DNA of 64,000 nucleotides, from the NCBI GenBank assembly GCA_964391355.1, contig CAYMJY010000001.1, forward strand, positions 4,340 through 68,339, in the 5' to 3' direction. Shown here piece after piece: positions 2,584-60,134 of this stretch. Position numbers and translations under genes: made by a program. The first letter of the stretch is position 1. The number at the start of each line of letters is the position of its first letter. The notes beneath the pieces were generated by a model. It saw only the letters and a program-made list of their open reading frames with translations. It was not told the origin of the DNA and did not search any database. This DNA is from an uncultured Dehalococcoidia bacterium (GTDB lineage Bacteria; Chloroflexota; Dehalococcoidia; Lucifugimonadales; Australimonadaceae).

Positions 2584-3387
2584 TTGAAAACTAATCTGAA
2601 AACTGGTGACGCGAGAGAGGAAACTCCTCAGGGCGTAACTATAAAAACTGAAAAAGAGCTTACCTATATGTGGGAAGCGGGTCAGGTTGTGGCGAAGACC
2701 CACCAGATTCTAAAAGGCGCAATTCAGCCGGGTATCAGCACCAAAGAGCTTGACACCATTGCTGAAAGAGAAATTAGAGCGCTGGGAGCGATTCCTGCAT
2801 TTAAGGGCTACCGTGGATTTCCCGGGACACTTTGTGTCTCAGTAAACGATGAAATAGTACACGGTATACCGAGCAAAAGGACAGTCAAAGAGGGTGATTT
2901 AGTTAGCTTAGATTTAGGAGCAATCGTCGGAGGTCTTTATGGCGATGCTGCTGTGACTTGGCCGGTCGGGGTAGTCAGTGAGAAGTTGGTTGAATTATTG
3001 AAAGTTGGCGAAGCTAGTCTGTACGCTGGGATTCGAAAATCCTTGCCAGGTAATCGTATTGGAGATGTGTCCAATGCGATTCAGCGAGAAATAGAGGGTT
3101 CGGGTTCTTATGGAATTGTTAGGGAGTATGTTGGGCATGGCATAGGGCGCCAATTGCACGAGCAACCTTCAGTTCCCAATTTTGGAGTCGCCGGTAGAGG
3201 GATGCAGTTGCGGACTAACATGGCTATTGCAATTGAACCAATGGTTAACCTCGGCACGCATGAGACAACTTTGCTCGAGGATGACTGGACTGTAAAGACG
3301 GTTGATGGAAGCTACTCTGTCCATTTCGAGCATACGGTGATTATTGCAGAAGATGGGCCTATAGTTACCACAAGGTTGGAACAATAA
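2584..3387 (+). CDS. map: type I methionine aminopeptidase
   Basis: 267-aa ORF with metal-ligand context ([23 protein letters not shown]). TTG at 2584 is the only canonical start upstream of the conserved N-terminal helix. Confidence 0.9.
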
Positions 3388-19799: not shown

Positions 19800-20813
19800 C
19801 TATTTTGATGATTTTTGCATTATGAATTCGTTCGTATACAAGCTTTTGAAGTCCCATTCTGATGAGGCCTGACCAGAATCTGGTAACAAGTCATTATTCT
19901 CCATCCACTCAGCGAACCTTTGCCATTTTATGTCAGATTGCCACCCGAATATCATGTTCTCGCTTAACCAGTATGGCGTTAAGAGTTTAATCCCACGGCG
20001 TTCAGTATCTATGTCTGTTTCCGGGACTAGACGAGACAATACGTTAATGGCTTCTTGTGGGTCATTTAGTGAATCTTGATAACCTTTTGACATAGCATTA
20101 ATAAACTTTTGCACCACATCCTTAGATTCTTTGACATTCTTTTGGCTTGTAACCAGCACGATTTCATAAAAATCTGGAACTCCCCAGTCTTCCATTTTTA
20201 TAACATTAACCGGAAAGCCTTGATTTGCCGCTGCAATCGATTCAGCAACCCAATAGGCCCCAATAATTGCGTCGACTTGCTTGCTGATCAGTGCAGGCAC
20301 TAAGTCAAACCCTACGTTGACTAGCTCTACATCATTGAGTTCAATACCATCGGCCTTGAGCATCGTTTCAAGTAGTGGAGCATCAGATGGAACCCCATAT
20401 GCGCCGATAGTTTTCCCTTTAAGTTCTGATGGTCTAGTAATGCCAGATGATTCCAGAGTCATTATTGAATTTAAAGGATGCTGGACCAGAGCAGCTACAG
20501 ATGTAATTGGAACACCAGCCCGACCTGCTATCAAAACTTCACTTTGATAACTTAGCCCAAAGTCATCTTCACCAGAACCAACTGACATCAAGGTAGTTGC
20601 TGGGTCATTTGGCACATAAATCTCTACGTCTAGACCTTGTTCACTGAAATACCCTCGATCAAGGGCCATATACAATCCGCTATGGTTAGACCAAGGAATC
20701 CAGTCCAAGGCTAATCTAACTTTAGTATTTTCCTCTTCTCCAGCTCGACAAGCACTAGCGAATACCGATAGTACAATCATTAATACTAATCCCATTGAAA
20801 AAATTTTATGCAT
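19800..20813 (-). CDS. ABC transporter substrate-binding protein, NMT1/THI5-like (ThiY-like; candidate HMP/thiamine-precursor binding)
   Basis: 337-aa ORF with a signal peptide and the LDWIPWSNHSGLYMALDRGYFSEQGLDVEIY motif of NMT1/THI5-like binding proteins. Last gene of an operon headed by a TPP riboswitch. Confidence 0.8.
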   Translation of the reverse strand: MHKIFSMGLVLMIVLSVFASACRAGEEENTKVRLALDWIPWSNHSGLYMALDRGYFSEQGLDVEIYVPNDPATTLMSVGSGEDDFGLSYQSEVLIAGRAGVPITSVAALVQHPLNSIMTLESSGITRPSELKGKTIGAYGVPSDAPLLETMLKADGIELNDVELVNVGFDLVPALISKQVDAIIGAYWVAESIAAANQGFPVNVIKMEDWGVPDFYEIVLVTSQKNVKESKDVVQKFINAMSKGYQDSLNDPQEAINVLSRLVPETDIDTERRGIKLLTPYWLSENMIFGWQSDIKWQRFAEWMENNDLLPDSGQASSEWDFKSLYTNEFIMQKSSK

Positions 20814-20832
20814 ACTGGCCCTTCCGTTTGTT

Positions 20833-21624
20833 TTAACTTTCTCTATTGAAACCTATTTCTGAGATTTGCTTCCATTTAAGTAATTTGAGTTCGATTAGTG
20901 AAATAAATAAGAAGAAACTTGTACCCATCAAAGCAAGAACCAAAACCGCTGCAAAAGAACGCGCTGTTAGAAATAACGGAACGGATACTCTTGTTAAATA
21001 TCCCAAACCTTCACTTGAGCCGATCCATTCTCCTACGACCGCTCCTATTACGCAGAAAGTAGCAGAAATTTTCATGCCGGAAAAGACGGATGGGAGTGAC
21101 GCGGGTAGTCGGACTTTGATGAAAATCTGAAAAGGATTTGCTCCTGTAGTCAACATTACCCTGATGATGTCTCTGTCCACAGACCGTAATCCATCTACTG
21201 TTGAGACTACAATTGGGAAAAAAGTGAGCAAGACCACTGTTACTACCTTGGGGGTAACCCCGTACCCAATCCAAATTAGCAATAAAGGTGCTATTACAAT
21301 TGTGGGAATTGTCTGAGAAGCTATTATGATGGGGTAAATCGCTCTACGTAGGAGCGGAGATATACTTATAACCAAAGCTAGAGTCGTACCTAGCATTAAC
21401 GCTATTAGAAACCCAACTATCGCTTCAAATGCGGTGACTTTTGTGTGAGTGAGGAATAATGGATAGTTATTTAACAATTCAGACAAGATGGCACTTGGTG
21501 CTGGCAATTTCCACTCAGGGATATCTAGGTAACGAACACAAAGTTCCCAAAAGAAAATGAGTATTGCAAGTAGCATTACCGACAGCCCATAAAATTTAAA
21601 TAATCGATCAATTAGTTTAAGCAT
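20833..21624 (-). CDS. ABC transporter permease (nitrate/sulfonate/bicarbonate-type, ThiX-like)
   Basis: 263-aa protein with about six predicted TM helices. Adjacent to the ATPase with a 0-nt gap. Confidence 0.85.
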   Translation of the reverse strand: MLKLIDRLFKFYGLSVMLLAILIFFWELCVRYLDIPEWKLPAPSAILSELLNNYPLFLTHTKVTAFEAIVGFLIALMLGTTLALVISISPLLRRAIYPIIIASQTIPTIVIAPLLLIWIGYGVTPKVVTVVLLTFFPIVVSTVDGLRSVDRDIIRVMLTTGANPFQIFIKVRLPASLPSVFSGMKISATFCVIGAVVGEWIGSSEGLGYLTRVSVPLFLTARSFAAVLVLALMGTSFFLFISLIELKLLKWKQISEIGFNRES

Positions 21625-22422
21625 CTAGGTTCCCTTATTCTCACCAAGCAAGCTAGATGGTTTTAATTGATCCAATAATTCAGTTTTAAGCTTTATATAG
21701 GCAGGATCCTTAAAAGCATCGTATGTTCTTGGTCGGTCTAAAGTCACATCCAAAGATTTGACAATATGGCCTGGGCGAGGACTCAAGATGTATATTTTGT
21801 CAGATAAAATTATCGCCTCATCTATATCATGAGTTACTAGGACTATGGTCTTTTTATAATCACTCCACAGTCTATTTAGAATTGCTTGCATTTCACCTCG
21901 TGTAAGCGCATCTAATGCACCAAAGGGTTCATCTAAAAGCAATAACTGAGTCTCAGTCATAATAGTCCTTAAAAGCGCAACTCTTTGGCGCATCCCTCCA
22001 GAAAGGCGGGCAGGTAGGAAATGCGCGAATCCAGCTAATCCGAAATCTTCAAGGTGGCTCAGGATAGTTTTGCGAGCATCTCTTCGCTTAACACCTTTGA
22101 TCTCAAGAGGAAGAGCTGCATTGTCCAGAACTGACCTCCAAGGCAATAAAGAATCACTTTGTGGCATGTAGGCGATTTGTCCCAATCGATGGTTATGATT
22201 TCCGGTTGGTATTACTAAATGACCAGAAGTGGGCTCTTCTAGTCCAGCTAATATGTTGAGGAGCGTACTCTTACCACTTGCACTTGGACCAATGATGCTT
22301 ACGAATTCATTAGCTTTTATGTTTAGGTTGATTTGAGATAAAACTGTAGTGACCCGACCTTCATTGGCGTAATCTTTACAAAGGTCAACAACTTCAATTG
22401 CGCTATTGTTTAAGGTACCCAA
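21625..22422 (-). CDS. ABC transporter ATP-binding protein (ThiZ-like)
   Basis: Walker A GPSASGKST, signature LSGGMRQRVAL, Walker B LLLDEPFGALD. TTG start at 22422, preceded by GGTGAGGA. Confidence 0.9.
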   Translation of the reverse strand: MGTLNNSAIEVVDLCKDYANEGRVTTVLSQINLNIKANEFVSIIGPSASGKSTLLNILAGLEEPTSGHLVIPTGNHNHRLGQIAYMPQSDSLLPWRSVLDNAALPLEIKGVKRRDARKTILSHLEDFGLAGFAHFLPARLSGGMRQRVALLRTIMTETQLLLLDEPFGALDALTRGEMQAILNRLWSDYKKTIVLVTHDIDEAIILSDKIYILSPRPGHIVKSLDVTLDRPRTYDAFKDPAYIKLKTELLDQLKPSSLLGENKGT

Positions 22423-22485
22423 ATGTTCCTCACCAGCAACCGAGGATGGATAACGACTGCGCTTACAAGCTAATTTGGCGCTTGC

Positions 22486-22577
22486 GCGATGATCCCTACG
22501 CTGGTTTTAACCAGATCAGGTTCAAAGGGTCGCTTCATTGTTGAAGCCTCTCAGCCGTACCCCTGGCTCCCCATCGC
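22486..22577 (-). promoter_or_regulatory. TPP (THI-element) riboswitch aptamer
   Basis: The minus strand reads GCGATGGGGAGCCAGGGGTACGGCTGAGAGGCTTCAACAATGAAGCGACCCTTTGAACCTGATCTGGTTAAAACCAGCGTAGGGATCATCGC. It contains the conserved CUGAGA box and the ACCCUUUGAACCUGAUCUGG-N-CCAGCGUAGGGA thi-box. A closing P1 helix pairs GCGAUG with CAUCGC. Downstream, UCCUC can pair with the GAGGA Shine-Dalgarno of the ATPase gene. Confidence 0.85.
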
Positions 22578-22600
22578 TACTATTCACTATAATTACAACG

Positions 22601-22629
22601 ATAGTATGTTAGCTATTAATGCCCGTCAA
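22601..22629 (-). promoter_or_regulatory. candidate sigma70-type promoter for the riboswitch/ABC operon
   Basis: The minus strand reads TTGACG (22629-22624), a 17-nt spacer, then TACTAT (22606-22601). It sits about 25 nt upstream of the riboswitch P1. Confidence 0.45.
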
Positions 22630-22750
22630 TTGTCGAAAATAGCTGGAAATGGACATGTTTTTTGGATAATAATCACAGAAAGGTACCCAATCCGCACTAT
22701 GGAGTCTATGGACAACCTAATTCTTGTGCTATTATCTCCATCTGGATCCG

Positions 22751-22780
22751 GCTTTAGCTGGCTTTGGTTTGCTTTAGTTT
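22751..22780. repeat. three tandem 10-bp direct repeats (GCTTTRGNNN)
   Basis: gctttagctg / gctttggttt / gctttagttt are exactly contiguous, about 90 bp upstream of the 22871 gene. Confidence 0.7.
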
Positions 22781-22870
22781 GACCAGATTTTCGGCAGCCT
22801 AATTAGCCGAAGTTATAAACGAGGAACCCCGCCGACTTGTAGGCATACTGGAGAGGGGCAGGAGCGCATT

Positions 22871-23842
22871 TTGATGGTTCGAACCTTTTCTACTGGAATA
22901 ATTCTTTCTTTGGTTGTGGTGCTAACGCTATTCGTTAGTTCTGCTATGGCACAGACAAAACTTGGAGGTTCAGTAACTTTCCGAGATGATGGTGCCAACG
23001 CTGGTGCCAAATTGGTAACGTCTTTGACGGGCTTGCAAACAGGAATTGCATATGAAGGGCAACTTTGGTCAGCAGATGGGCAAAGTTCGGTTAATGTTGG
23101 TGCCCTTACAATAGCGGTCGATGGATCTGCTAGTAACACTTATGTTGACCCTGATGGTGCGAGTTTGCAGGGCAAGTATGATCACTATGTGATAATTGAT
23201 CCAAGCGGAACTATCGTTTACGCGGACTCAATTCCGTCTGTATCTTCATCAAGCATTAATAGCGTAATGACTACAGACGCACTTGGCCTTCGAGATAATG
23301 TATCAGCAGCCTTGGCATTTGCTGAAGCCGCTGATGCTGCTACTACATTAAGCGACCAACAGTCTGCTGCTAATGATGTTTTGGGAGTTATTGCTTCGAT
23401 AGTAGCGCACGCTGATAGTGTTATTGCAGCCGCTGATGAAATTAATCTTTCAGCTGCTGCTGAACTTGATGTAGCTGCTGCAGCAAAGAACGCTAGTTCA
23501 AATGCTGCTGACGCAAAAACTGGTGCATTACAAGCCCAGGCTAACGCGAATACCTTAATTGCTGCCACGGGCGTTTCTGACTATGGTACAAAAATTCAGG
23601 TACAGAATATGAAGGTAGGCTTATCGAACGCTGATGCATCAGCCAAATTAGCTTACACGGATGCACAGAACATGGCTGCATTTATCCCAGTACTTGGGGC
23701 GTCACCTGTCTTTGTGGCTGCTGCGCCAGAGGTTGGTGATGGCATGGTTCCCTTGGTAGCTTGGATGGCAATGGCATTAGGTCTGGTTTTTGTTGCTACC
23801 AGCGGCTTTCTGATTTCTCGCAAGCGTGCATTAGTCAGCTAG
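22871..23842 (+). CDS. alanine-rich secreted protein with a C-terminal membrane anchor (unknown function)
   Basis: Signal peptide MMVRTFSTGIILSLVVVLTLFVSSAMA|QT, then a ~110-aa beta-rich region and a ~150-aa Ala/Ser/Asp-rich region. The C-terminus is AAAPEVGDG, a hydrophobic helix, then SRKRALVS. AGGAGC Shine-Dalgarno upstream. The start is TTG 22871 or ATG 22874. Confidence 0.65.
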   Translation: MMVRTFSTGIILSLVVVLTLFVSSAMAQTKLGGSVTFRDDGANAGAKLVTSLTGLQTGIAYEGQLWSADGQSSVNVGALTIAVDGSASNTYVDPDGASLQGKYDHYVIIDPSGTIVYADSIPSVSSSSINSVMTTDALGLRDNVSAALAFAEAADAATTLSDQQSAANDVLGVIASIVAHADSVIAAADEINLSAAAELDVAAAAKNASSNAADAKTGALQAQANANTLIAATGVSDYGTKIQVQNMKVGLSNADASAKLAYTDAQNMAAFIPVLGASPVFVAAAPEVGDGMVPLVAWMAMALGLVFVATSGFLISRKRALVS

Positions 23843-24256: not shown

Positions 24257-25168
24257 CTACATCAATGCATTTATAATCTTGGATCCTTGATCCTCTGTTA
24301 GTGACCCTGCTCTCCCACTAAGGGGGCCATCGTCACGCAGCACGGGTTCTTGTTGCTCTAAAGTCAAAGCACCTTCCCGCTGATAGAACACTCCCGTGTA
24401 AATTTTATCTCCCCACTGCATTGCGGACTCACAAGCTGCTTTCCAATCACTGGTGTCATGACCTTCTTCCTCGAGCTTGTGCACCCTTTGTTTAAAGAAA
24501 GAATGATCGTTATCGTGGTTGAAAGTCACGCATGGGCTAAGTATATCTATCAAGGAAAAGCCTGTATGGCTAATCGCTTGTTTCATGATATCTGACAGAT
24601 GGCGTGGATCTCCACTGTATCCGCGAGCCACAAAAGTAGCACCGTTCATTATTGCGGAAGTTAACGGATTTAATGGTGTTTCTACACTACCAAACGGAGT
24701 ACTTTTAGTTCTCATACCAACACTACTAGTTGGTGAAATTTGGCCAGTTGTGAGTCCATAAATTTGATTGTTCATGACTAAGTAAGTGATATCTATATTG
24801 CGTCTTGCGGTATGAGTGAAATGGTTTCCTCCAATACCGTAACCATCTCCATCACCACCAGTAACAATAACAGTTAATTCATGGTTTGCTAACTTTGCAC
24901 CTGCAGCAACAGCCAGAGAACGTCCGTGCAATGTGTGCATGCCGTAGGAATTAAAATAACCTGGGAAATTCGATGAGCACCCAATACCACTCACAGTGAG
25001 AATAGAATGAGGACTTATATTCATTTCAGCGCATGACCTTTGCAGGGCATTTAGAACTCCAAAGTCACCGCAGCCAGCGCACCAGTCTGGATCAGCGAGA
25101 CCCTTAAAGTCTTTAGGAGTAAGTTGTATGGGTGACGACCCTCCCGAAAATTCTTTTGTGATTGTCAT
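24257..25168 (-). CDS. korB: 2-oxoacid:ferredoxin (acceptor) oxidoreductase, beta subunit (TPP-binding)
   Basis: 303-aa ORF with WCAGCGDFGVL, VSGIGCSS and the GGDGDGYGIGGNH TPP-binding motif. Substrate (2-oxoglutarate or another 2-oxoacid) not determinable. Confidence 0.85.
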   Translation of the reverse strand: MTITKEFSGGSSPIQLTPKDFKGLADPDWCAGCGDFGVLNALQRSCAEMNISPHSILTVSGIGCSSNFPGYFNSYGMHTLHGRSLAVAAGAKLANHELTVIVTGGDGDGYGIGGNHFTHTARRNIDITYLVMNNQIYGLTTGQISPTSSVGMRTKSTPFGSVETPLNPLTSAIMNGATFVARGYSGDPRHLSDIMKQAISHTGFSLIDILSPCVTFNHDNDHSFFKQRVHKLEEEGHDTSDWKAACESAMQWGDKIYTGVFYQREGALTLEQQEPVLRDDGPLSGRAGSLTEDQGSKIINALM

Positions 25169-25181
25169 TTGAATGACCTCC

Positions 25182-26969
25182 TTAAACCATTATTTCCTGA
25201 TAAGGAATACTTATTGTTGTATTCCCTTCCAACTGTTCCATCACTGCTTCGACAATATGATGAGGCGCAAATGGTTCGCCATCATACTTTCTGATATGCC
25301 CATCTGCAGAAATTCCTGTTTCACTTCTTAAGTATCTTGCAAATTGCCCAGAGTAATTATTCTCAACAATGATTGTTCGTTTGGAAGCAGTAAATACTTC
25401 TTCTATAACTTTTCCGTGTAACGGCACAATCCACTTAATGGGTAAATGATTAACTGTTATTCCATTTTGTTGAAGTATTGGAATTGCATCTTTAATGACG
25501 TTATAAGTAGAGCCCCACCCGACTAAGGTTACTTCAGCATCAGTCTGACCTTCCAAGGACGGAGGAGCCACTTGGCTCTCAACGTTGCTGAGTTTTCTTG
25601 CCCGCTTTTCGACCATTTTCCTTCGTTTATGAGGATCTGTGAATTCATCACTAATTAGCAAGGAATTCTCGTCATGTTCATCAGTTGCGACAACATGTAT
25701 ATGGCCTTGGATTCCGGGTAAGGCTCTTGGTGAAACCCCTGATTCTGTGGACTCGTACCTTTTGTAGTTCTGTTCCGTAGATCCTTCAGTAATTAGTTCA
25801 CCCCTATCAATTGTTGGGTAAACGTCTATTAAATCTGGGTCCACCGTGCTTGTGCCTTCAGAAATGAGTAAGTCGGTTAGAACAATGCCTGGGCATTGCA
25901 ACTTATCAGTCAGATTAAATAATTCAGGCATAGTATTAAACGCATCAAGTGAATTAAAAGGAGCTACAACAATTCTTTCAAAATCGCCTTGGCTTGCACC
26001 AAGTGCTTGCCACAAATCACCCTGTTCAGTTTTAGTAGGTACTCCTGTCGACGGCCCTGCCCGTTGAACGTTGATGAATATTGCGGGAACCTCCATCATT
26101 CCAGCCATACCAATAGCCTCTGTCATCAAGGCGAAACCACCTCCAGAAGTAGCGCACATTGACCTTACACCGGCATGAGCAGCACCTATCACTGTATTTG
26201 CTACGGCTATTTCGTCTTCCATTTGCCTAACCATTATGCCTAATCCGCGAGCGTTTTGAGCCATCCAGTGCAATACGCCCGTAGACGGGCTCATGGGGTA
26301 AGCTGCGTAAAACTTCACACCAGCTGCTGCACCACCCATTGCGAGAGCTTGATTGCCTGTCCAAACAGCCAGGGGCTTTCCACCCTGAGGTGCAGGCATT
26401 GGGAATGGTGTGAAGTTTTCTACTGCATGTTGATATCCAGCACGAGCAACGTTTACGTTCTCTTCAACAACAAGCTCACCTTGGCGTGCAAAACGCTGCC
26501 TGGTGCTTTCTTCAAGTATGCTGAAATCAAGCCCAGCTAGGTGCATAAAAGCTCCTAAAGCTACAGTGTTTTGAACTAGTCGATTTCTTGAATTATCTGT
26601 CAATTCAGCAATAGGTAAACCGCAAAGCTCCACGCCTGACTCGGGCGTCCCAGGTGTAATGGCATCAGAGTTATACAGCACCCTTGATCCTGAGCCCATC
26701 AGGCTCAAGTGCCGGTCCATAGTATCTTGATTTAAACATAAAAGCAGATCTAATTTGTCTCCATGGCTATTTGAAAAATCATCCCTAGCACGAATGGTGA
26801 GAAAAATATGTCCGCCTCTAACAATAGATTGGAATGCATTGTAGGCATTGATGTGTAAGCCTTGGCGTGCCAACATTTGAACAACAATGTTGCCTGGTGT
26901 TGCTATTCCCTGACCGGCGGCACCACCGATTGCTATTGAAAAATCATACCTTTCTGAACTCATACTCAT
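25182..26969 (-). CDS. korA: 2-oxoacid:ferredoxin (acceptor) oxidoreductase, fused gamma/alpha subunit
   Basis: 595-aa ORF. The N-terminus (IGGAAGQGIATPGNIVVQMLARQGL) is the gamma-type domain. It is followed by the alpha pyrimidine-binding domain (GNQALAMGGAAAGVKFYAAYPMSPST). Confidence 0.85.
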   Translation of the reverse strand: MSMSSERYDFSIAIGGAAGQGIATPGNIVVQMLARQGLHINAYNAFQSIVRGGHIFLTIRARDDFSNSHGDKLDLLLCLNQDTMDRHLSLMGSGSRVLYNSDAITPGTPESGVELCGLPIAELTDNSRNRLVQNTVALGAFMHLAGLDFSILEESTRQRFARQGELVVEENVNVARAGYQHAVENFTPFPMPAPQGGKPLAVWTGNQALAMGGAAAGVKFYAAYPMSPSTGVLHWMAQNARGLGIMVRQMEDEIAVANTVIGAAHAGVRSMCATSGGGFALMTEAIGMAGMMEVPAIFINVQRAGPSTGVPTKTEQGDLWQALGASQGDFERIVVAPFNSLDAFNTMPELFNLTDKLQCPGIVLTDLLISEGTSTVDPDLIDVYPTIDRGELITEGSTEQNYKRYESTESGVSPRALPGIQGHIHVVATDEHDENSLLISDEFTDPHKRRKMVEKRARKLSNVESQVAPPSLEGQTDAEVTLVGWGSTYNVIKDAIPILQQNGITVNHLPIKWIVPLHGKVIEEVFTASKRTIIVENNYSGQFARYLRSETGISADGHIRKYDGEPFAPHHIVEAVMEQLEGNTTISIPYQEIMV

Positions 26970-30893: not shown

Positions 30894-31535
30894 GTGGCGC
30901 ATTCATTTGAAGGGATAGATAGCGGTATGTTTGCGGATGCTTTGGACATCCTGAATCATGATGGTGCGATGGTGGGTTTGCAGCCTGTAGCTCATGGACA
31001 AAGATTTCATGGTAACGCGCTGACTGTAAGAATGTTGGTTGGTACGCCTGGCACCTTCGCACCGGAAGAAATTGCTTTAGGCAAAATTCTTGAAGGTGCT
31101 TCCAAGGATGATGTGATCATCATAGACGTGGGTGGTGAGTACATTACAGTTTGGGGAGAACTAGCAGCTATTGCTGCGCAAAATATCGGAGTAGCGGGAT
31201 TGATAGTTGATGGTGCAGTGCGTGATGCTGATATTATGCAAGAACTTGGTTTCCCCGTCATAACTAGGCATATCTGCCCGACTGCGGGAAAAACTCGCTT
31301 GCGGTTAGGTTCAGTAAATCAAGAACCAGTTAAAGTAGGCGGCGTAAGTGTCAGCCCTGGGGATTTCGTATTTGCAGATGAGACAGGGGCAGTTGTTGTT
31401 CCAAAAGACATGTATGATTCTACTTTGGAAGAACTCGACAAGATCAAGAAGAAAGAAAATGCCTTCAAAGAGGGCTTAGCTAAAGGATTACCATACCTCG
31501 AAGCAGCAAAAGGTATGGGATTAGTCCAAATTTAA
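30894..31535 (+). CDS. RraA-family protein (candidate 4-hydroxy-4-methyl-2-oxoglutarate/oxaloacetate-type class II aldolase)
   Basis: 213-aa ORF with the RraA-fold pattern (GNALTVRM..., DDVIIIDVGGEYITVWGELAAIAAQNIGVAGLIVDGAVRD). GTG start 7 nt after AAGGAG. The aldolase role is inferred from its neighbours. Confidence 0.75.
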   Translation: MAHSFEGIDSGMFADALDILNHDGAMVGLQPVAHGQRFHGNALTVRMLVGTPGTFAPEEIALGKILEGASKDDVIIIDVGGEYITVWGELAAIAAQNIGVAGLIVDGAVRDADIMQELGFPVITRHICPTAGKTRLRLGSVNQEPVKVGGVSVSPGDFVFADETGAVVVPKDMYDSTLEELDKIKKKENAFKEGLAKGLPYLEAAKGMGLVQI

Positions 31536-31579
31536 TTATATAAAAATTTTTTGTAATTCAGGTTAAGGAGATTAGGCTA

Positions 31580-32368
31580 ATGAGCCTTACAAACGAACAA
31601 GTCAAAGAACTAGCAGATTCACTATGGAGCGCTGAGGAAACGCATAATTTCATCCCACCGTTGACTGATTCATTTCCTGATTTATCTCCCGATGATGCAT
31701 ATCGAGTACAAGAACAAGTACTCCAGTATCGATTAAGTAGCGGTAGAAAAGTCGTTGGCAAGAAAGTTGGGCTTACCAGCGCGGCGATGCAAAAAATGTT
31801 GGGTATTGATACACCAGATTACGGTATGATTTTTGACAATATGGTTCTTGCAGACGGTGCTGAAGTACCTTTTGATTCATTGCAACAACCGCGTGTGGAG
31901 CCAGAGATCACTTTCTTCCTGAAAAAGACCATTAAAGGCCCCAATGTTTCAATTGACGATGTCTTGGAGGCCACGGACTATGTGGTTGCATCTCTTGAGG
32001 TTGTAGGTAGTCGTGTAGCTGACTGGAAAATCAAACTTGCGGATACCATAGCTGATAACGCTTCACATATGGCCGCTGTGATCGGATCAGCCAAAATAGA
32101 CGTCGCTCAAGTGGATCTGGTCAACGAAGGATTGGTCTTTGAAAAAAATGGCGTAGAGCTAAGCAGAGGCACTGGCGCTGCAGTATTGGATAATCCTGCT
32201 AAAGCAGTAGCTTGGTGTGCCAATAAGCTTGGTGAGTATGGTGTTCCGTTAAATGCTGGTGAGTTTGTTATGCCTGGTGCGCTAGTTGGCATGACACCTG
32301 TTGAAAAAGGAGACATAGTAGTTGCAAAATTTGACACTCTTGGCTCTGTTAGTGTGAAGTTTATTTAG
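31580..32368 (+). CDS. mhpD: 2-oxopent-4-enoate (2-keto-4-pentenoate) hydratase family protein
   Basis: 262-aa ORF with AYRVQEQVLQYRLSSGRKVVGKKVGLTSAAMQ, typical of the MhpD/XylJ/HpcG family. Upstream of the aldehyde dehydrogenase and aldolase pair. Confidence 0.85.
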   Translation: MSLTNEQVKELADSLWSAEETHNFIPPLTDSFPDLSPDDAYRVQEQVLQYRLSSGRKVVGKKVGLTSAAMQKMLGIDTPDYGMIFDNMVLADGAEVPFDSLQQPRVEPEITFFLKKTIKGPNVSIDDVLEATDYVVASLEVVGSRVADWKIKLADTIADNASHMAAVIGSAKIDVAQVDLVNEGLVFEKNGVELSRGTGAAVLDNPAKAVAWCANKLGEYGVPLNAGEFVMPGALVGMTPVEKGDIVVAKFDTLGSVSVKFI

Positions 32369-32409
32369 ATTGTGTTGATTTGCACCTTGGTGTACTTAAG
32401 GAGACTTAG

Positions 32410-33318
32410 ATGGATCATGAAAAGATAGGAGTAGCCATTGTTGGCTCCGGAAACATAGGCACAGACCTGATGCTAAAGCTTGCCGATCACCCTAGGCTTG
32501 AAATGAGATTAATGGTTGGCATTGATCCAAATTCTGAAGGCTTAGCAATGGCCAAGCAAATGGGATATCAAGTAACTGCTAATGGTATTGAGGGATTTAA
32601 AGAGCATCATGATTTGGTAAAAATTGTATACGAATCAACCAGTGCGAAAGCCCACATAGCAAACGCACCTGTCTATAAAGAGTTGGAAAAGATAGCTATC
32701 GATCTAACGCCTGCATCTGTGGGTCCGTATGTTGTGCCGTATGTGAATATTGGAGATGTGCTTGATGAACCAAACGTCAATTTAATTACGTGCGGTGGAC
32801 AGGCGACAATCCCCATGGTTAATGCGGTGTCAAAAGTAACAAGGGTTCCATACGCCGAGATTGTTGCAACTATTGCCTCTAAAAGTGCGGGCCCAGGTAC
32901 AAGAGCTAACATAGATGAATTCACTGAAACCACAGCTACAGGCATCGTGAGAATTGGTGGTGCTGAAAAGGGTAAGGCTATTATTATTCTCAATCCCGCA
33001 GACCCGCCTATCATAATGAGGGACACTGTTTATTGCCAAGTAGAGGAAATGGACAAAGAGGCTATACTTGGCTCCATTCATGACACGGTTAAGAGGATTC
33101 AAACGTACGTACCTGGTTATCGGCTACGCGTAGATCCGATTTTCTATGACGATAGAGTTGTAATAACAATAGAGGTCGAGGGCGCAGGAATGTATTTGCC
33201 CAAGTATTCAGGTAATTTGGATATTATGACAGCGGCCGCTGTAGAAGTGGGCGATCAATTTGCTAGAAGCCTATTGGGCTTGCCAACTCAAACAGCACCA
33301 ACTGCAGGAGGGGCATAA
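32410..33318 (+). CDS. mhpF: acetaldehyde dehydrogenase (acetylating)
   Basis: 302-aa ORF with [19 protein letters not shown] and the catalytic-Cys context [14 protein letters not shown]. Paired with the aldolase. Confidence 0.9.
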
Positions 33319-33319
33319 A

Positions 33320-34354
33320 ATGTCCATTAAGCGAAAAATCAGACTCGTCGATTCCACCATGCGTGACGGAAGCCATCCGATGGCTCATCAATTCACCGCA
33401 GAACAAGTCACCCAGATTGCACAAGCTCTTGATGGAGCTGGTATTCCTTTAGTTGAAATTTCTCATGGTGACGGCCTAGGTGGTTCGTCTCTGAATTATG
33501 GATTCTCAAAAGAAGATGAACAAGATTTAATAGCAGCAGTCAATTCAGCGATGTCTAATTCCCGTATCACCGTTTTGCTTTTACCAGGCATAGGGATTCA
33601 AGAAGATTTAAAAGAATCCTATGACCGCGGGGCAAGAGCAGTTCGCGTGGCAACTCACTGTACTGAAGCAGACATTGCAATTCAGCATATTGGCCTGGCA
33701 CGTGATTTGGGTATGGAAACGCTGGGGTTTTTAATGATGGCCCATATGATTGAACCTGCTGACCTCGTAGAACAAGCAAAAATCCATGAATCTTCAGGTG
33801 CAGAAGCAGTGTACGTTACTGATTCTGCAGGAGCGTTACGCCCGGATGGTGTACGAGCGAGGGTATCTGCGTTACGTGAAGCCTTGGACCCAAAAACCAA
33901 AATTGGCATTCATTGCCACAACAATTTAGGCCTTGGTATAGGTAACTCCCTAGCTGCAGTGGAAGAAGGAGCCGAGTACGTGGATGGTTGTTTGGGAGGT
34001 TTAGGCGCTGGTGCTGGTAACGCTCAGACTGAAGTTTTGGCATCTGTTTTAGAGTTAGAAGGCTATGAAACCGGTGTAGACATATACAAAATCATGGATG
34101 CAGCTGAGGATGTAGTAAAGCCAATGATGCAAAGACCGCAAATTATTGATAGAGCCAGCTTGGTTCTCGGTTATGCAGGTGTTTACTCAAGTTTTTTGTT
34201 GCACACATATAGGGCCGCTGCAAAGTTCAATATTGAACCACGTGATATTTTAATGGAATTAGGAAAGCGCAAAATTGTTGGGGGACAGGAAGATTCAATT
34301 CTTGACCTTGCAGCAGAGTTAGCGTCAGAGCAAGAAAAAACAACTGCTAGCTAA
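33320..34354 (+). CDS. mhpE: 4-hydroxy-2-oxovalerate aldolase
   Basis: MSIKRKIRLVDSTMRDGSHPMAHQF... The start is set at ATG 33320, preceded by GGAGGGG and 1 nt after the mhpF stop, rather than the track's TTG 33260. Confidence 0.9.
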   Translation: MSIKRKIRLVDSTMRDGSHPMAHQFTAEQVTQIAQALDGAGIPLVEISHGDGLGGSSLNYGFSKEDEQDLIAAVNSAMSNSRITVLLLPGIGIQEDLKESYDRGARAVRVATHCTEADIAIQHIGLARDLGMETLGFLMMAHMIEPADLVEQAKIHESSGAEAVYVTDSAGALRPDGVRARVSALREALDPKTKIGIHCHNNLGLGIGNSLAAVEEGAEYVDGCLGGLGAGAGNAQTEVLASVLELEGYETGVDIYKIMDAAEDVVKPMMQRPQIIDRASLVLGYAGVYSSFLLHTYRAAAKFNIEPRDILMELGKRKIVGGQEDSILDLAAELASEQEKTTAS

Positions 34355-35078: not shown

Positions 35079-36965
35079 GTGGAAATTCGAAATATTGAAG
35101 TTACTTTAAAAGAGGTCGATAGTACTGGTACTCCAGTGGTCGAGATTGATGACCAAAAACTACCAATCTTTGGCGCAATTAAGGGGGAACGAGTACACAT
35201 CACTGCTCAAATATCCTCAAATAAAGCAAGTGAAATTCAATTGTCGCAAGTGATAGAAAAATCCATACACCGTGTGGATGCCCCTTGCATACATTTTGGT
35301 GAGTGTACCGGGTGTCAGTGGCAACATATCAGTTACCAACACCAACTATCAATGAAATACCAAATTGTTATAAATGCTTTTAAAGGGGTGAGGGATTTTG
35401 ATGTTAAGGACATTATGCCAACTCTTCCTAGCCCTAAACAATATGGATACCGTAACCATGCAAGGTTCACTGTTAGTAAAAGAGAAGGTCTCTTGGGTTT
35501 TATTAATAAAGAAAGCAGGTCACATATAGCAATATCAGAATGCAAAATCATGGACTGGCGAATTAACGAGATACTCGCCTCTATTCAAGGGAAAGTTAAT
35601 GAGACAGCGCAACTTGCTGTACGTGTAGGACAGCATACTGATTCGCGTATGGTCCAACCCCGCTTATTAACTTCAGATGTGCCAATAAACACAGGACAGG
35701 AATATTATCAAGAAAGGATTAAAGAGCGAACTTTCAGGATAGCGTCGCCTTCCTTTTTTCAAGTTAATACTGAACAGGCCGAGCATGTTGTTGACTTGGT
35801 TATCCAAGCTTTGCATTTAAAAGGCGATGAAGTAGTAATTGATGCTTACGCTGGTGTTGGTATATTCGCTGTAATGCTCGCACCTCATGTGAAAAAAGTA
35901 ATAGGGATTGAATATTCAGAGAAAGCTGTTTCCGATGCTGCATTTAATGCTCAAGGACTTCCTCAAGTGGAGTTCAAACTTGGTAAATCAGAAGTAGTTC
36001 TCAGGCAATTAACATCGCAACTAGATGATGTGGATGCAGTTATTTTGGATCCCCCTAGAAGTGGTTGTGAAAAGGAAGCACTTAAATCTTTGATTGACCT
36101 TGCACCTAGGCGAATTGTTTACGTCTCTTGTGAACCTGTTTCATTAGCGAGAGATATCGATATTCTTTTATCAGGTCCTTTCAAAATTGATAAAATTCAG
36201 CCTGTTGATATGTTTCCTCAAACACGTCACGTAGAGTGCATCGTTACATTAAATCGAGATCAGGAGAAAGTAGATATTCGATCAAATAGAGGGAATTTAG
36301 TTCTTGCATCGAAATCTCCTAGAAGGCAGGATATTTTAAGCCGACTAGGAATAAAATTTATTACTAACCATCCATCAGTTGTTGAGAAGCCAGAAGAAAA
36401 TGCCAAAGCTGATGACCTTGCAATTTCACGAGCCTTAGAGAAGGCTAGAACCGTGGCCAGAGGATTCACTAATGGGGTTGTGATTGGTGCCGACACAGTC
36501 GTCCAGTTAGGTGATTTGGTTCTAGGAAAACCTGCTGACCGTGCAGAAGCATTTAAGATGCTTAACTTGCTCCGCGATAGGGAGCATAACGTAATCACGG
36601 CGATAGCTCTAGTGGATGCTAATACAGATGAATATATAGTTGATCATCTAATATCCAGAGTACGCATGCGTAATTATTCGGAAAAAGAAATGACCGACTT
36701 CATTGAGACAGGACATTCTTTTGACAAAGCAGGAGCTTATGCGGTCCAAGATGAATTTTTCTACCCAGCAGCAGAAGTTTCAGGTTGTTATTTAAATGTG
36801 GTTGGCCTGCCGGTATGTAAGTTGGTAGAACTTTTTGAACAATTTGGAGTTCCTCCAATGATCAACGTTCAACAGGGATGGAAAGAGCTTGTTAGATGTC
36901 CTGCTTGTTCGAGAAAGATTACTAATATGAACATGGTTCAGAATAAAAAAGAGTCAGGTATTTAG
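35079..36965 (+). CDS. fusion protein: RumA/TrmA-family RNA (uracil-C5)-methyltransferase + Maf-like nucleoside-triphosphate pyrophosphatase
   Basis: 628-aa single ORF with a GTG start 7 nt after AAGGAG. Residues ~1-405 carry CIHFGECTGC plus a later Cys (Fe-S cluster pattern), DAYAGVGIFA, ILDPPRSGC, VYVSCEP and DMFPQTRHVE. Residues ~415-600 carry LVLASKSPRRQDIL, GADTVV, GKP, DKAGAYAVQD and NVVGLP (Maf). A short CPACS tail follows. Confidence 0.85.
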   Translation: MEIRNIEVTLKEVDSTGTPVVEIDDQKLPIFGAIKGERVHITAQISSNKASEIQLSQVIEKSIHRVDAPCIHFGECTGCQWQHISYQHQLSMKYQIVINAFKGVRDFDVKDIMPTLPSPKQYGYRNHARFTVSKREGLLGFINKESRSHIAISECKIMDWRINEILASIQGKVNETAQLAVRVGQHTDSRMVQPRLLTSDVPINTGQEYYQERIKERTFRIASPSFFQVNTEQAEHVVDLVIQALHLKGDEVVIDAYAGVGIFAVMLAPHVKKVIGIEYSEKAVSDAAFNAQGLPQVEFKLGKSEVVLRQLTSQLDDVDAVILDPPRSGCEKEALKSLIDLAPRRIVYVSCEPVSLARDIDILLSGPFKIDKIQPVDMFPQTRHVECIVTLNRDQEKVDIRSNRGNLVLASKSPRRQDILSRLGIKFITNHPSVVEKPEENAKADDLAISRALEKARTVARGFTNGVVIGADTVVQLGDLVLGKPADRAEAFKMLNLLRDREHNVITAIALVDANTDEYIVDHLISRVRMRNYSEKEMTDFIETGHSFDKAGAYAVQDEFFYPAAEVSGCYLNVVGLPVCKLVELFEQFGVPPMINVQQGWKELVRCPACSRKITNMNMVQNKKESGI

Positions 36966-57478: not shown

Positions 57479-57555
57479 CGGGGAGTGGCGCAGCTTGGTA
57501 GCGCGCTACGTTCGGGGCGTAGAGGTCGTGGGTTCGAATCCCGCCTCCCCGACCA
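57479..57555 (+). tRNA. tRNA-Pro (anticodon CGG), CCA encoded
   Basis: Folded by hand. Acceptor stem CGGGGAG/CUCCCCG; D stem GCGC/GCGC. Anticodon stem CUACG/CGUAG with loop UU-CGG-GG (G37). T arm GUGGG-UUCGAAU-CCCGC; 3' ACCA. A perfect TATAAT hexamer lies at 57456-57461. Confidence 0.93.
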
Positions 57556-58490: not shown

Positions 58491-60134
58491 ATGGATAAAA
58501 TCAAAGGATCACACGCTCTATTCAGAAGTTTAAAACAATACGATGTTGATACTATATTTGGGCTAATCGGTGCTCATACAATGGAACTTTTCGATGCACT
58601 TTATGATTTTCAGGATTCCATCAGACTGATTACAACAAGAGATGAAAGATCAGCAGCATTAATGGCTGATGGGTATGGAAGAGTATCTCATAAACCAGGG
58701 GTTTGCTTAACCAGTACAGGGCCCGGAGCCGCAAATGCAATGAGCGGGCTCGGGGAGGCTTATTTTTCTTTTTCTCCAGTGATCCATGTTACTAGCACAG
58801 CAGAAGAGAATTTATATGGAAGAGCATTAGGGGCAAATCACGAAACCAGAGACCAATTGGGTATGTTGAGTTCAGTTAGTAGGGATGCTTTCCATATTTC
58901 AACATCTAGGGACATACCGAGCGTAGTAAGAGAATCTTTTTATAACCTTGCTGTAAAGCGACCTCAACCAATTTCTATTGAAATTCCTGTAGACGTGCAG
59001 AGTGAAACGGTACACTTTGAAAACTCTAAAGCTACAGCCTTTGATAAACTGGAGCTGGATCATTCAGCTATTGAATTAGCTGCAAAACTACTTCTTGAGG
59101 GCAGGCGGGTTGGAATTTGGGCAGGTACTGGAGTTGATAGAGCAGATGCTTCACAAGAGCTACTGCATCTTGCATCACTAATGAACGTTCCTGTTTTTAC
59201 CACTCCCGGAGGCAAAGCAGGTTTCCCTTCAGACCATCCTCTTAATGTTGGAGTTCTAGGAGGCCCTGGTGGTTTGACAAATGGACCATACCCTTTAAGG
59301 GAATTTGTAGCTTCATTAGATACAGTACTAGTTGTGGGTTCAAGCTTAAGATATACGTCAACTGTATCTCAGAAGATCCGGTTACCCGAAAATTTAATCC
59401 ATATCGATATTTCACCCGAACCTATGGGCAAAAACTATGAGCCTAAAATTAGAGTTGTAGGTGACGCAAAAGATGCTCTCCAGCAAATCATTTTGGAAGT
59501 AGATGGTAAAAACACTTCATTAATTGAAGCTTATGACAAAGAAATAAAATTGACCAAGTCAAATGTGGCAAAGTACCTCTGGGCTCACTACCCCAACCCT
59601 ATGAAGGTTATGAGATCTATAAGAGAAGTGGTAGGCCGCAGTGCAATTTTCACTGGAGATGCTTCGATTTCTGCCACTAGAGGTGCTAATGCCTGTTTAG
59701 AAGTTTTTGAACCACGAACTTATTTACCACCTGTATGGGGCGGCCTGGGTTTTGCGTTCCCCGCCTCAATTGGTGCAAAAGTTGCTATGCCAGATAGCAC
59801 AGTAATTTGTATTACCGGAGACGGTGGATTCCAGTTCAACCTTCAAGAACTTGGTACGTGCTACCAATACGGTATTAGTCCGATTGTTTTGGTATTCAAT
59901 GATAATGCTTGGGGTTCCACAAGATTAAGACAGCAAGACAATTTCGGAGGTAGATATATCGGCACAGGTCTTGAAAACCCCGATTTTGTAAAAGTAGCCA
60001 AGGCTTTTAACGTTAATGGGTTATCTGCTAAGTCTTTGCCCGAATTATGCAACGCATTGGAAGAGTCGATGAAATCAACGAGCGCCTGTGTTATAGAAAT
60101 ATCTACACCTAAAGGTTTCGATCTATTTAACTAA
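58491..60134 (+). CDS. thiamine-diphosphate-dependent enzyme (acetolactate synthase large subunit / benzoylformate decarboxylase superfamily)
   Basis: 547-aa ORF with an N-terminal Pyr domain (GYGRVSHKPGVCLTSTGPGAANAMSGLGEAY) and the C-terminal TPP motif ITGDGGFQFNLQELGT...NDNAWG. Reaction not assignable. Confidence 0.85.
   Translation: MDKIKGSHALFRSLKQYDVDTIFGLIGAHTMELFDALYDFQDSIRLITTRDERSAALMADGYGRVSHKPGVCLTSTGPGAANAMSGLGEAYFSFSPVIHVTSTAEENLYGRALGANHETRDQLGMLSSVSRDAFHISTSRDIPSVVRESFYNLAVKRPQPISIEIPVDVQSETVHFENSKATAFDKLELDHSAIELAAKLLLEGRRVGIWAGTGVDRADASQELLHLASLMNVPVFTTPGGKAGFPSDHPLNVGVLGGPGGLTNGPYPLREFVASLDTVLVVGSSLRYTSTVSQKIRLPENLIHIDISPEPMGKNYEPKIRVVGDAKDALQQIILEVDGKNTSLIEAYDKEIKLTKSNVAKYLWAHYPNPMKVMRSIREVVGRSAIFTGDASISATRGANACLEVFEPRTYLPPVWGGLGFAFPASIGAKVAMPDSTVICITGDGGFQFNLQELGTCYQYGISPIVLVFNDNAWGSTRLRQQDNFGGRYIGTGLENPDFVKVAKAFNVNGLSAKSLPELCNALEESMKSTSACVIEISTPKGFDLFN

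Follow-up and report, generated by a model that had tools for sequence, protein, structure and literature searches.

Control of ThiXYZ-type transporters by the THI element has long been established by comparative genomics, and the structure of their binding protein ThiY has been solved. The stretch of DNA described here (64 kb from an uncultured Dehalococcoidia bacterium, contig CAYMJY010000001.1; called the window hereafter) carries a locus of this type, in which a riboswitch aptamer for thiamine pyrophosphate (TPP) precedes three ATP-binding cassette (ABC) transporter genes on the minus strand. The locus is an ordinary example of a well-known riboswitch–importer arrangement, an association of textbook standing. 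As a whole, it is quite probably best explained as a TPP-sensing riboswitch in the leader of a ThiXYZ-type importer operon.

The best match to the binding protein of the window, by sequence as well as by fold, is ThiY from Bacillus halodurans (3IX1), yet the two proteins are just 32% identical. The THI element-regulated ThiXYZ system of B. halodurans has the same three components and the same riboswitch class upstream. It differs from the window, where the genes are ordered ATPase, permease, and binding protein, where no tenA or ylmB is adjacent, and where control is probably translational rather than exerted by a terminator. Translational control of this kind is known from the TPP riboswitch of Escherichia coli thiM, an OFF switch in which ligand-stabilized helices release an anti-Shine-Dalgarno strand that occludes the Shine-Dalgarno (SD) sequence. 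The same logic is proposed for the window, although the platform sequence is unrelated to that of thiM and the proposed competitor of the SD is the aptamer’s own invariant GGGGA(G) P2 strand. Two further proteins share the fold of the binding protein. The Clostridium difficile protein 4NMY belongs to the same family but is more distant than ThiY, and it was crystallized with thiamin instead of FAMP (N-formyl-4-amino-5-aminomethyl-2-methylpyrimidine). The yeast hydroxymethylpyrimidine (HMP) phosphate synthase THI5/NMT1 has the NMT1 Pfam domain in common with the window protein. It is a cytosolic suicide enzyme, whereas the window protein has a signal peptide and carries Ser and Glu at the positions of Lys62 and His66 in THI5.

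The most similar operons are found in SAR202-like marine Chloroflexota (loci L007-L081), where they are arranged as riboswitch-thiZ-thiX-thiY-GYD-tenA-thiD. They share the aptamer family and the three transporter genes with the window, and their binding proteins are 50-61% identical to that of the window. Most of their leaders contain an intrinsic terminator, and their operons continue into GYD, tenA, and thiD; neither feature is found in the window clade.

The TPP riboswitch aptamer

The whole window was scanned against Rfam 15 by covariance models (cmscan). Two matches lie above the gathering score, namely one tRNA and one RF00059 element. The latter runs from 22582 to 22474 on the minus strand, covers the full model (positions 1-105), and reaches 62.9 bits, where the gathering score is 54.3 (E 5.7e-10), a result that was reproduced on rescan.

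22474-22582, minus strand: TPP riboswitch aptamer (RF00059), identified by covariance model; core from P1 to P1 at 22577-22486

Direct reading of the minus strand gives a perfect P1 helix of 6 bp between GCGAUG (22577-22572) and CAUCGC (22491-22486). The CUGAGA pyrimidine sensor is intact at 22554-22549, and the thi-box ACCCUUUGAACCUGAUCUGGUUAAAACCAGCGUAGGGA at 22530-22493 contains the intact pyrophosphate-sensor motif ACCUGAUCUGG...CCAGCGUAGGGA. An earlier reading of this DNA, made without database searches (the sequence-only reading), had located the CUGAGA box, the thi-box, and the closing P1 helix on the minus strand, and all three are present at those coordinates. The RF00059 search that it had proposed as a check returned the significant match given above, with the conserved helices formed. 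In the Rfam alignment of the window, P1, P2, P3a, P4, and P5 pair canonically, and P3 contains two non-canonical positions. RNAalifold recovers P2, P3, P3a, P4, and P5 from 29 distinct related aptamers, with compensatory double-sided changes in seven pairs that are situated in P2, P3, and P3a; P1 is missing from this consensus owing to the poor alignment of the flanks.

The aptamer lies on the same strand as the transporter genes, with 63-64 nt between the end of P1 (22486) and the start codon at 22422. In lineages that are 72-78% identical in the DNA around it, the aptamer itself is near-identical. Judged by its sequence, the RF00059 element is confirmed as a genuine TPP riboswitch aptamer that is predicted to bind TPP. 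On binding of the ligand, the CUGAGA and GCGUAGGGA regions of the aptamer would be protected.

Related loci were collected in a metagenome scan that gave 80 further loci, and 85 loci in all were used for context counts. The thi-box pattern is present upstream of the binding-protein match, on the gene strand, in 38 of the 80. It lies ∼1.8-2.4 kb before the match in 36 of these 38 and ∼3.3 kb before it in L081; the remaining one, L002, duplicates the window. Among genome records, the closest is the Chloroflexota metagenome-assembled genome PBEP01000008, whose binding protein is 80% identical to that of the window. Its synteny matches the window through an HU-like gene, dinB, and a gene of the ornithine-cyclodeaminase family, and it has its own RF00059 match (56.2 bits).

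The ThiXYZ-type importer operon

The aptamer is followed by three genes on the same strand.

21625-22422, minus strand: ABC transporter ATP-binding subunit, ThiZ-like, 265 aa, TTG start (ABC_tran PF00005, E 1e-28)
20833-21624, minus strand: ABC permease, ThiX-like, 263 aa (BPD_transp_1 PF00528, E 2.7e-31)
19800-20813, minus strand: NMT1/THI5-like substrate-binding lipoprotein, ThiY-like, 337 aa (NMT1 PF09084, E 2.6e-72)

The start codon of the permease gene abuts the stop codon of the ATPase gene, and a gap of 19 nt separates the permease gene from the binding-protein gene. The three Pfam families agree with the order ATPase, permease, and binding protein that had been read from the translations. 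The TTG GGT (TTG GGU) start of the ATPase gene is common to the sister lineage and was also picked by an independent gene caller, and a short distance downstream of it the alignments of ATPase homologs set in. At residues 45-52, the ATPase of the window has the Walker A sequence GPSASGKS in common with its sister-lineage counterpart; GPSGCGKS is the version of the seven aligned homologs that are more distant.

The translation of the binding-protein gene begins with a hydrophobic N-terminal signal sequence ending in FASAC. Cys22 is invariant in 33 homologs, which together with the signal sequence fits a lipoprotein. A sequence search of the PDB returns the FAMP-binding ThiY of B. halodurans as the best match (3IX1, E 6.5e-53), followed by 4NMY (E 3.4e-44) and then the THI5 enzymes. 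An AlphaFold model was built on the alignment of 33 sequences and reaches a mean pLDDT (predicted local distance difference test) of 87. When this model is compared to the PDB with Foldseek, the same order is obtained as by sequence: 3IX1 at the top (template modeling (TM) scores 0.83/0.93), then the thiamin-bound 4NMY (TM 0.81/0.91), then THI5. In the sequence alignment, the binding protein and ThiY have the motifs LDWxP..H, SYQ, and PLN and the Glu in GxY..E in common. The assignment as an NMT1/THI5-like protein, already made from the letters of the sequence, is borne out by these comparisons, with ThiY as the closest member. Homologs of the binding protein carry the Joint Genome Institute label [quoted passage not shown]

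A role as a THI5-type enzyme was considered for the binding protein and rejected, on the basis of the signal peptide and of the Ser and Glu that stand opposite the Lys and His of the THI5 motif GLKAMIH. Lys62 and His66 are what we take to be the catalytic residues of THI5, and the PDB title “Thi5 H66G mutant” agrees with this. The homologies support the three genes as a putative ThiXYZ-type ABC importer operon with a binding protein of the ThiY family.

The expression platform

The sequence-only reading had proposed that a UCCUC segment downstream of the aptamer pairs with the GAGGA SD of the first gene and that control is translational. UCCUC is located at 22446-22442, GAGGA at 22431-22427, and the TTG start at 22422, all on the minus strand. 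Two local hairpins are predicted from the end of P1 to the start codon.

22460-22488, minus strand: post-P1 hairpin CGC GCAAGC...GCUUGU AA GCG, local fold -9.8 kcal/mol; role putative
22427-22446, minus strand: SD-sequestering hairpin of UCCUCG (22446-22441) and UGAGGA (22432-22427), local fold -7.9 kcal/mol

The first three bases of the post-P1 hairpin are the last three of the 3′ strand of P1, and the hairpin is followed by CAGUCG and no U’s. Terminators were sought, up to 130 nt from the aptamer, with an RNAfold-based test for a strong hairpin that a U-run follows. Such an intrinsic terminator follows the aptamer in 33 of 39 distinct related leaders. The leaders without one are those of the window (and identical contigs), of the sister lineage (L001, L003, and L082), and of L070 and L075. 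In the window, the 64 nt that lead from P1 to the start codon contain no hairpin with a U-run.

UCCUC has two alternative partners, namely the SD and the invariant aptamer strand GGGGA (22572-22568). When the Rfam structure of the aptamer is enforced, the SD bases are unpaired with a probability of ≤0.02. In the unconstrained minimum-energy fold, the 5′ half of the aptamer pairs with the platform through four helices of 22 bp in total (UAGCGAU::GUUGCUG, GGGGA::UCCUC, GGG::UCC, and ACGGCUG::CAGUCGU). The ribosome-binding site (22432-22410) can be opened at a cost of 9.5 kcal/mol when the aptamer is formed and of 5.7 kcal/mol in the free ensemble. From these pairings, we infer the following mechanism. 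At high TPP, the aptamer would fold and lock its 5′ strand GCGAU-GGGGA into P1 and P2; the freed UCCUC would then pair with the GAGGA SD and block initiation at the TTG of the first gene. At low TPP, the purine-rich 5′ half of the aptamer would act as a mimic of the SD and pair with UCCUC and its flanks, which would make the ribosome-binding site easier to open.

A different version of the same arrangement is found in a third lineage (L089, ATPase 63% identical). Its SD, GAAGGG, is paired with CCCCUUU (-6.7 kcal/mol), and CUCCCC, which overlaps the latter, is fully complementary to the invariant aptamer strand GGGGAG (-12.6 kcal/mol). The best reading of the platform is translational sequestration of the SD because a terminator is absent, an anti-SD hairpin is present, and the third lineage offers a compensatory version of it.

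Several results weigh against such a switch. Of 1000 dinucleotide shuffles, 81 attain the energy of the duplex that the aptamer 5′ half forms with the platform (-26.8 kcal/mol). Of 200 platform shuffles, 11 attain the bound-minus-free difference of 3.8 kcal/mol in opening cost (p about 0.05), and 38 attain the opening cost of the bound state alone. The unconstrained ensemble keeps the SD mostly paired, to a weak helix of the coding region. In the sister lineage, a 10-bp helix UCACCCAGAG::CUUUGGGUGA lies over the UUG start codon (L001), and the modeling of L001 yields no alternative fold that frees the start codon and no switch. The comparison of folds with and without the aptamer, which the sequence-only reading had suggested, supports sequestration of the SD in the bound state and falls short on the shuffle statistics, which are borderline, and on the free state of the SD. 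The proposed UCCUC/GAGGA pairing with translational control nevertheless stands as the best reading.

Other modes of action, and the possibility that the element has none, are to be weighed against this. That the aptamer is a chance or decayed element without a regulatory role is extremely improbable. The two non-canonical positions in P3 and a score just 8.6 bits over the threshold would leave room for it, but the E value of 5.7e-10, the intact ligand-sensing motifs, the near-identity of the aptamer between lineages with 72-78% identical surroundings, and the occurrence of the same element before the homologous operon in 38 related loci argue against it. Intrinsic transcription termination is the mode of most homologous operons, where a strong terminator hairpin with its U-run comes immediately behind the aptamer (33 of the 39 related leaders). 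It is very unlikely in the window and was rejected there because the leader contains no terminator hairpin with a U-run and CAGUCG takes the place of the U’s after the post-P1 hairpin.

The riboswitch may instead act mainly on the level of the transcript, through Rho-dependent termination or mRNA decay, with occlusion of the SD being secondary or absent. Among riboswitches that act on translation, some cause Rho termination as well, the thermodynamic support for the SD switch is borderline, and the start codon of the sister lineage is paired in both modeled states. However, an anti-SD/SD hairpin occurs with compensating sequences in two independent lineages, which is unexpected if ribosome access is irrelevant, and control mainly on the transcript level is regarded as improbable. 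Translational occlusion is the moderately probable mode in the window clade. A lineage-specific change of the expression platform, as seen between this clade and its relatives, is typical of riboswitch evolution.

Two further observations concern the same region. In L088, which belongs to the window’s own lineage, the SD carries a G to A change (at ∼320, corresponding to window position 22431) that turns GAGGA into AAGGA with no compensating change. The anti-SD hairpin is weakened from -7.9 to -2.5 kcal/mol by this change, which could be a natural variant or a sequencing error. In both non-terminator lineages, the P3 loop resembles the start-codon region and changes along with it. The two regions both contain GGGUAC in the window (22557-22564 and 22414-22423), and they contain CUGAGUGG and UUGGGUGA in the sister lineage (L001:3189-3196 and 3335-3344), where the P3 loop could pair at 7 of 8 positions with the start codon's sequestering strand. 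Going by this resemblance, the P3 loop may be a second competitor element.

Promoter and antisense reading frame

Upstream of the aptamer, a promoter had been proposed by the sequence-only reading, and an open reading frame (ORF) on the opposite strand had been called spurious.

22601-22629, minus strand: candidate sigma-70-type promoter, TTGACG (22629-22624)-N17-TACTAT (22606-22601), from sequence match and conservation
22489-22782, plus strand: antisense ORF of 97 aa, judged to be a non-gene; overlaps the aptamer and the promoter

The -10 hexamer is spaced 23 nt from P1, and transcription is predicted to start near 22594. The consensus match of 9/12 is no better than chance, as 7 such sites are observed in the region versus 9.3 expected from shuffles. 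Both hexamers and the 17-nt spacing are invariant in L001, L003, L082, and L090-L096, whereas the leader after P1 is almost fully diverged. The promoter gains comparative support from this invariance and none from its consensus score alone. The two hexamers are present where the earlier proposal had placed them, and their support comes from conservation in the sister lineage, not from the consensus match.

The only match of the antisense ORF is to a Pfam family below threshold (19.9 bits versus a cutoff of 25), and a scan against NCBIfam gives no match. The ORF is called by gene callers in contigs of the window’s own lineage. In the corresponding region of the sister lineage, the longest ORF has 44 aa, and nothing is called. 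The absence of an above-threshold family and of a preserved frame in the sister lineage supports treating the ORF as spurious, in agreement with the sequence-only reading.

The substrate of the importer

TenA converts aminopyrimidine to HMP, and ThiD phosphorylates HMP. To count these genes, hidden Markov models (HMMs) built from ORFs of the relatives were searched over every ORF of the 85 loci. TenA is present in 49 of the 85 loci, ThiD in 38, and a GYD-domain protein in 49, in all cases downstream of the binding-protein gene and on the operon strand. In SAR202-like loci, the next genes of the operon are a GYD-domain ORF, TenA, and ThiD, or ThiD comes at once, and the operon runs on into TenA in relatives that are 61% identical, the level of identity between the window binding protein and a TenA-linked homolog. 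The presence of tenA and thiD in homologous operons links this family of transporters with salvage of the pyrimidine part of thiamine. The compound taken up by the window importer is therefore predicted to be one with the pyrimidine moiety of thiamine, most likely HMP or its degradation-derived relatives 4-amino-5-aminomethyl-2-methylpyrimidine (AmMP) and FAMP. Salvage of a thiamine precursor had also been the conclusion of the sequence-only reading, and both the tenA and thiD genes of the homologous operons and the closeness to ThiY speak for it. Marine Chloroflexota, SAR202 included, are commonly without thiC (PMC12236431), and thiamin auxotrophs among the Chloroflexi carry several TPP-regulated transporters (PMC3766115).

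Two findings count against a pyrimidine substrate. The HMM search finds no homologs of TenA, ThiD, or GYD in the 64 kb of the window. A Pfam scan of the window ORFs from 8.6 to 63 kb likewise finds no thiamine biosynthesis families; the first 8.6 kb are a ribosomal-protein cluster, as read from the translations. Moreover, the second-best structural relative, 4NMY, was crystallized with thiamin, so that the substrate could be thiamine itself. Import of intact thiamine or of another TPP-related compound in place of a pyrimidine precursor is nonetheless unlikely. It would be in line with the rank of thiamin-bound 4NMY as the second-closest structure, with the loss from the window clade of the tenA and thiD genes that lie downstream in relatives, and with an earlier shift in the specificity of NMT1-type binding proteins, namely RibXY in Chloroflexi (PMC3766115). 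Yet the closest match is the FAMP-binding ThiY, and the binding protein retains all columns that are invariant across 33 family members, TenA/ThiD-linked ones included, and is 61% identical to a TenA-linked homolog. A pyrimidine compound remains the preferred substrate.

The losses in the window clade may also be connected. It is conceivable, if rather doubtful, that this clade lost tenA, thiD, and GYD and at the same time swapped the ancestral terminator for a translational platform, and that the binding protein shifted its substrate together with these changes. If this were true, with for example intact thiamine or a pyrimidine that bypasses the TenA step as the substrate, the window operon would be a distinct functional subtype of ThiXYZ and not a plain ortholog.

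The GYD-domain gene of related operons

The GYD-domain ORF (PF08734, a family of unknown function) encodes ∼119 aa and is situated between the binding-protein gene and tenA/thiD in the 49 loci mentioned above. Examples from related loci, outside the window, are the following.

L007:6081-6440: GYD-domain ORF
L024:4219-4581: GYD-domain ORF
L030:4898-5245: GYD-domain ORF

No sequence relative of this ORF was found in the PDB, and none of the papers searched links GYD with tenA or with a riboswitch. The FAMP deformylase YlmB is reported to be missing from marine bacteria (PMC10470507), which makes the GYD-domain gene a hypothetical candidate for a missing step or for an unrecognized component of thiamine-pyrimidine salvage. 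In two loci (L012:5948-6850 and L018:4062-4955), the place of GYD/tenA after the binding-protein gene is taken by a gene for an alpha/beta-hydrolase (PF00561), which could be an alternative amidohydrolase acting on the formylated pyrimidine.

Other features of the window

Upstream of the riboswitch promoter, two intergenic blocks (22655-22748 and 22788-22874) are ∼97% identical to the sister lineage, compared to 72-78% in their surroundings. The first contains an inverted repeat GGATAATAATCACAGAA / TTCTTGTGCTATTATCC; an extended -10-like TGnTATTAT is present in each of its arms, the two being on opposite strands. In the second, there is a hairpin TTCGGC...GCCGAA. Neither block matches Rfam when E values of up to 10 are allowed, and neither has a significant RNA fold (z-scores of -1.1 and -0.3), with two lineages only being available for covariation. 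They probably hold the promoter and leader of a divergent gene for a secreted protein.

22874-23842, plus strand: divergent ORF of 321 aa, start ATG at 22874 preceded by GGAG

The encoded protein is rich in Ala/Ser and has a signal peptide and a C-terminal transmembrane anchor. It has no Pfam or NCBIfam family and looks, from these sequence features, like a cell-surface protein. The sister lineage has conserved the ORF, and a gene caller predicts 321 aa there as well.

Several more distant features were noted. Two TPP-dependent enzymes are encoded in the window, namely a 2-oxoacid:ferredoxin oxidoreductase (beta and alpha subunits) just past the divergent gene and an acetolactate-synthase-like enzyme.

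24257-26969, minus strand: 2-oxoacid:ferredoxin oxidoreductase, beta and alpha subunits
30894-34354, plus strand: cluster resembling a meta-cleavage lower pathway, with an RraA-like aldolase, a hydratase of the FAA-hydrolase family, acetaldehyde dehydrogenase, and 4-hydroxy-2-oxovalerate aldolase (HMGL-like and DmpG_comm)
35079-36965, plus strand: ORF of 628 aa with a tRNA/rRNA uracil-5-methyltransferase (residues 215-393) and a Maf nucleotide pyrophosphatase (residues 406-588), an apparent gene fusion
57479-57555, plus strand: tRNA-Pro (anticodon CGG), the only tRNA in the window
58491-60134, plus strand: acetolactate-synthase-like enzyme

Implications

The locus does not change what is known of riboswitches or of thiamine salvage. 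For its annotation, the riboswitch should replace the spurious antisense ORF, and a new name, thiamine-precursor importer, can be given to the three ABC genes, whose present names are generic. Within one family of aptamer and operon, two platforms appear to be in use: a terminator in most lineages and, probably, occlusion of the ribosome site in the window clade. A more interesting lead than the riboswitch itself is the GYD-domain gene, which probably belongs to the salvage operon. In ecological terms, the locus adds one more uncultured lineage of marine Chloroflexota that probably depends on external pyrimidine compounds of vitamin B1, which fits the reports that thiC is often missing (PMC12236431) and that TPP-regulated transporters are present (PMC3766115) in such organisms.

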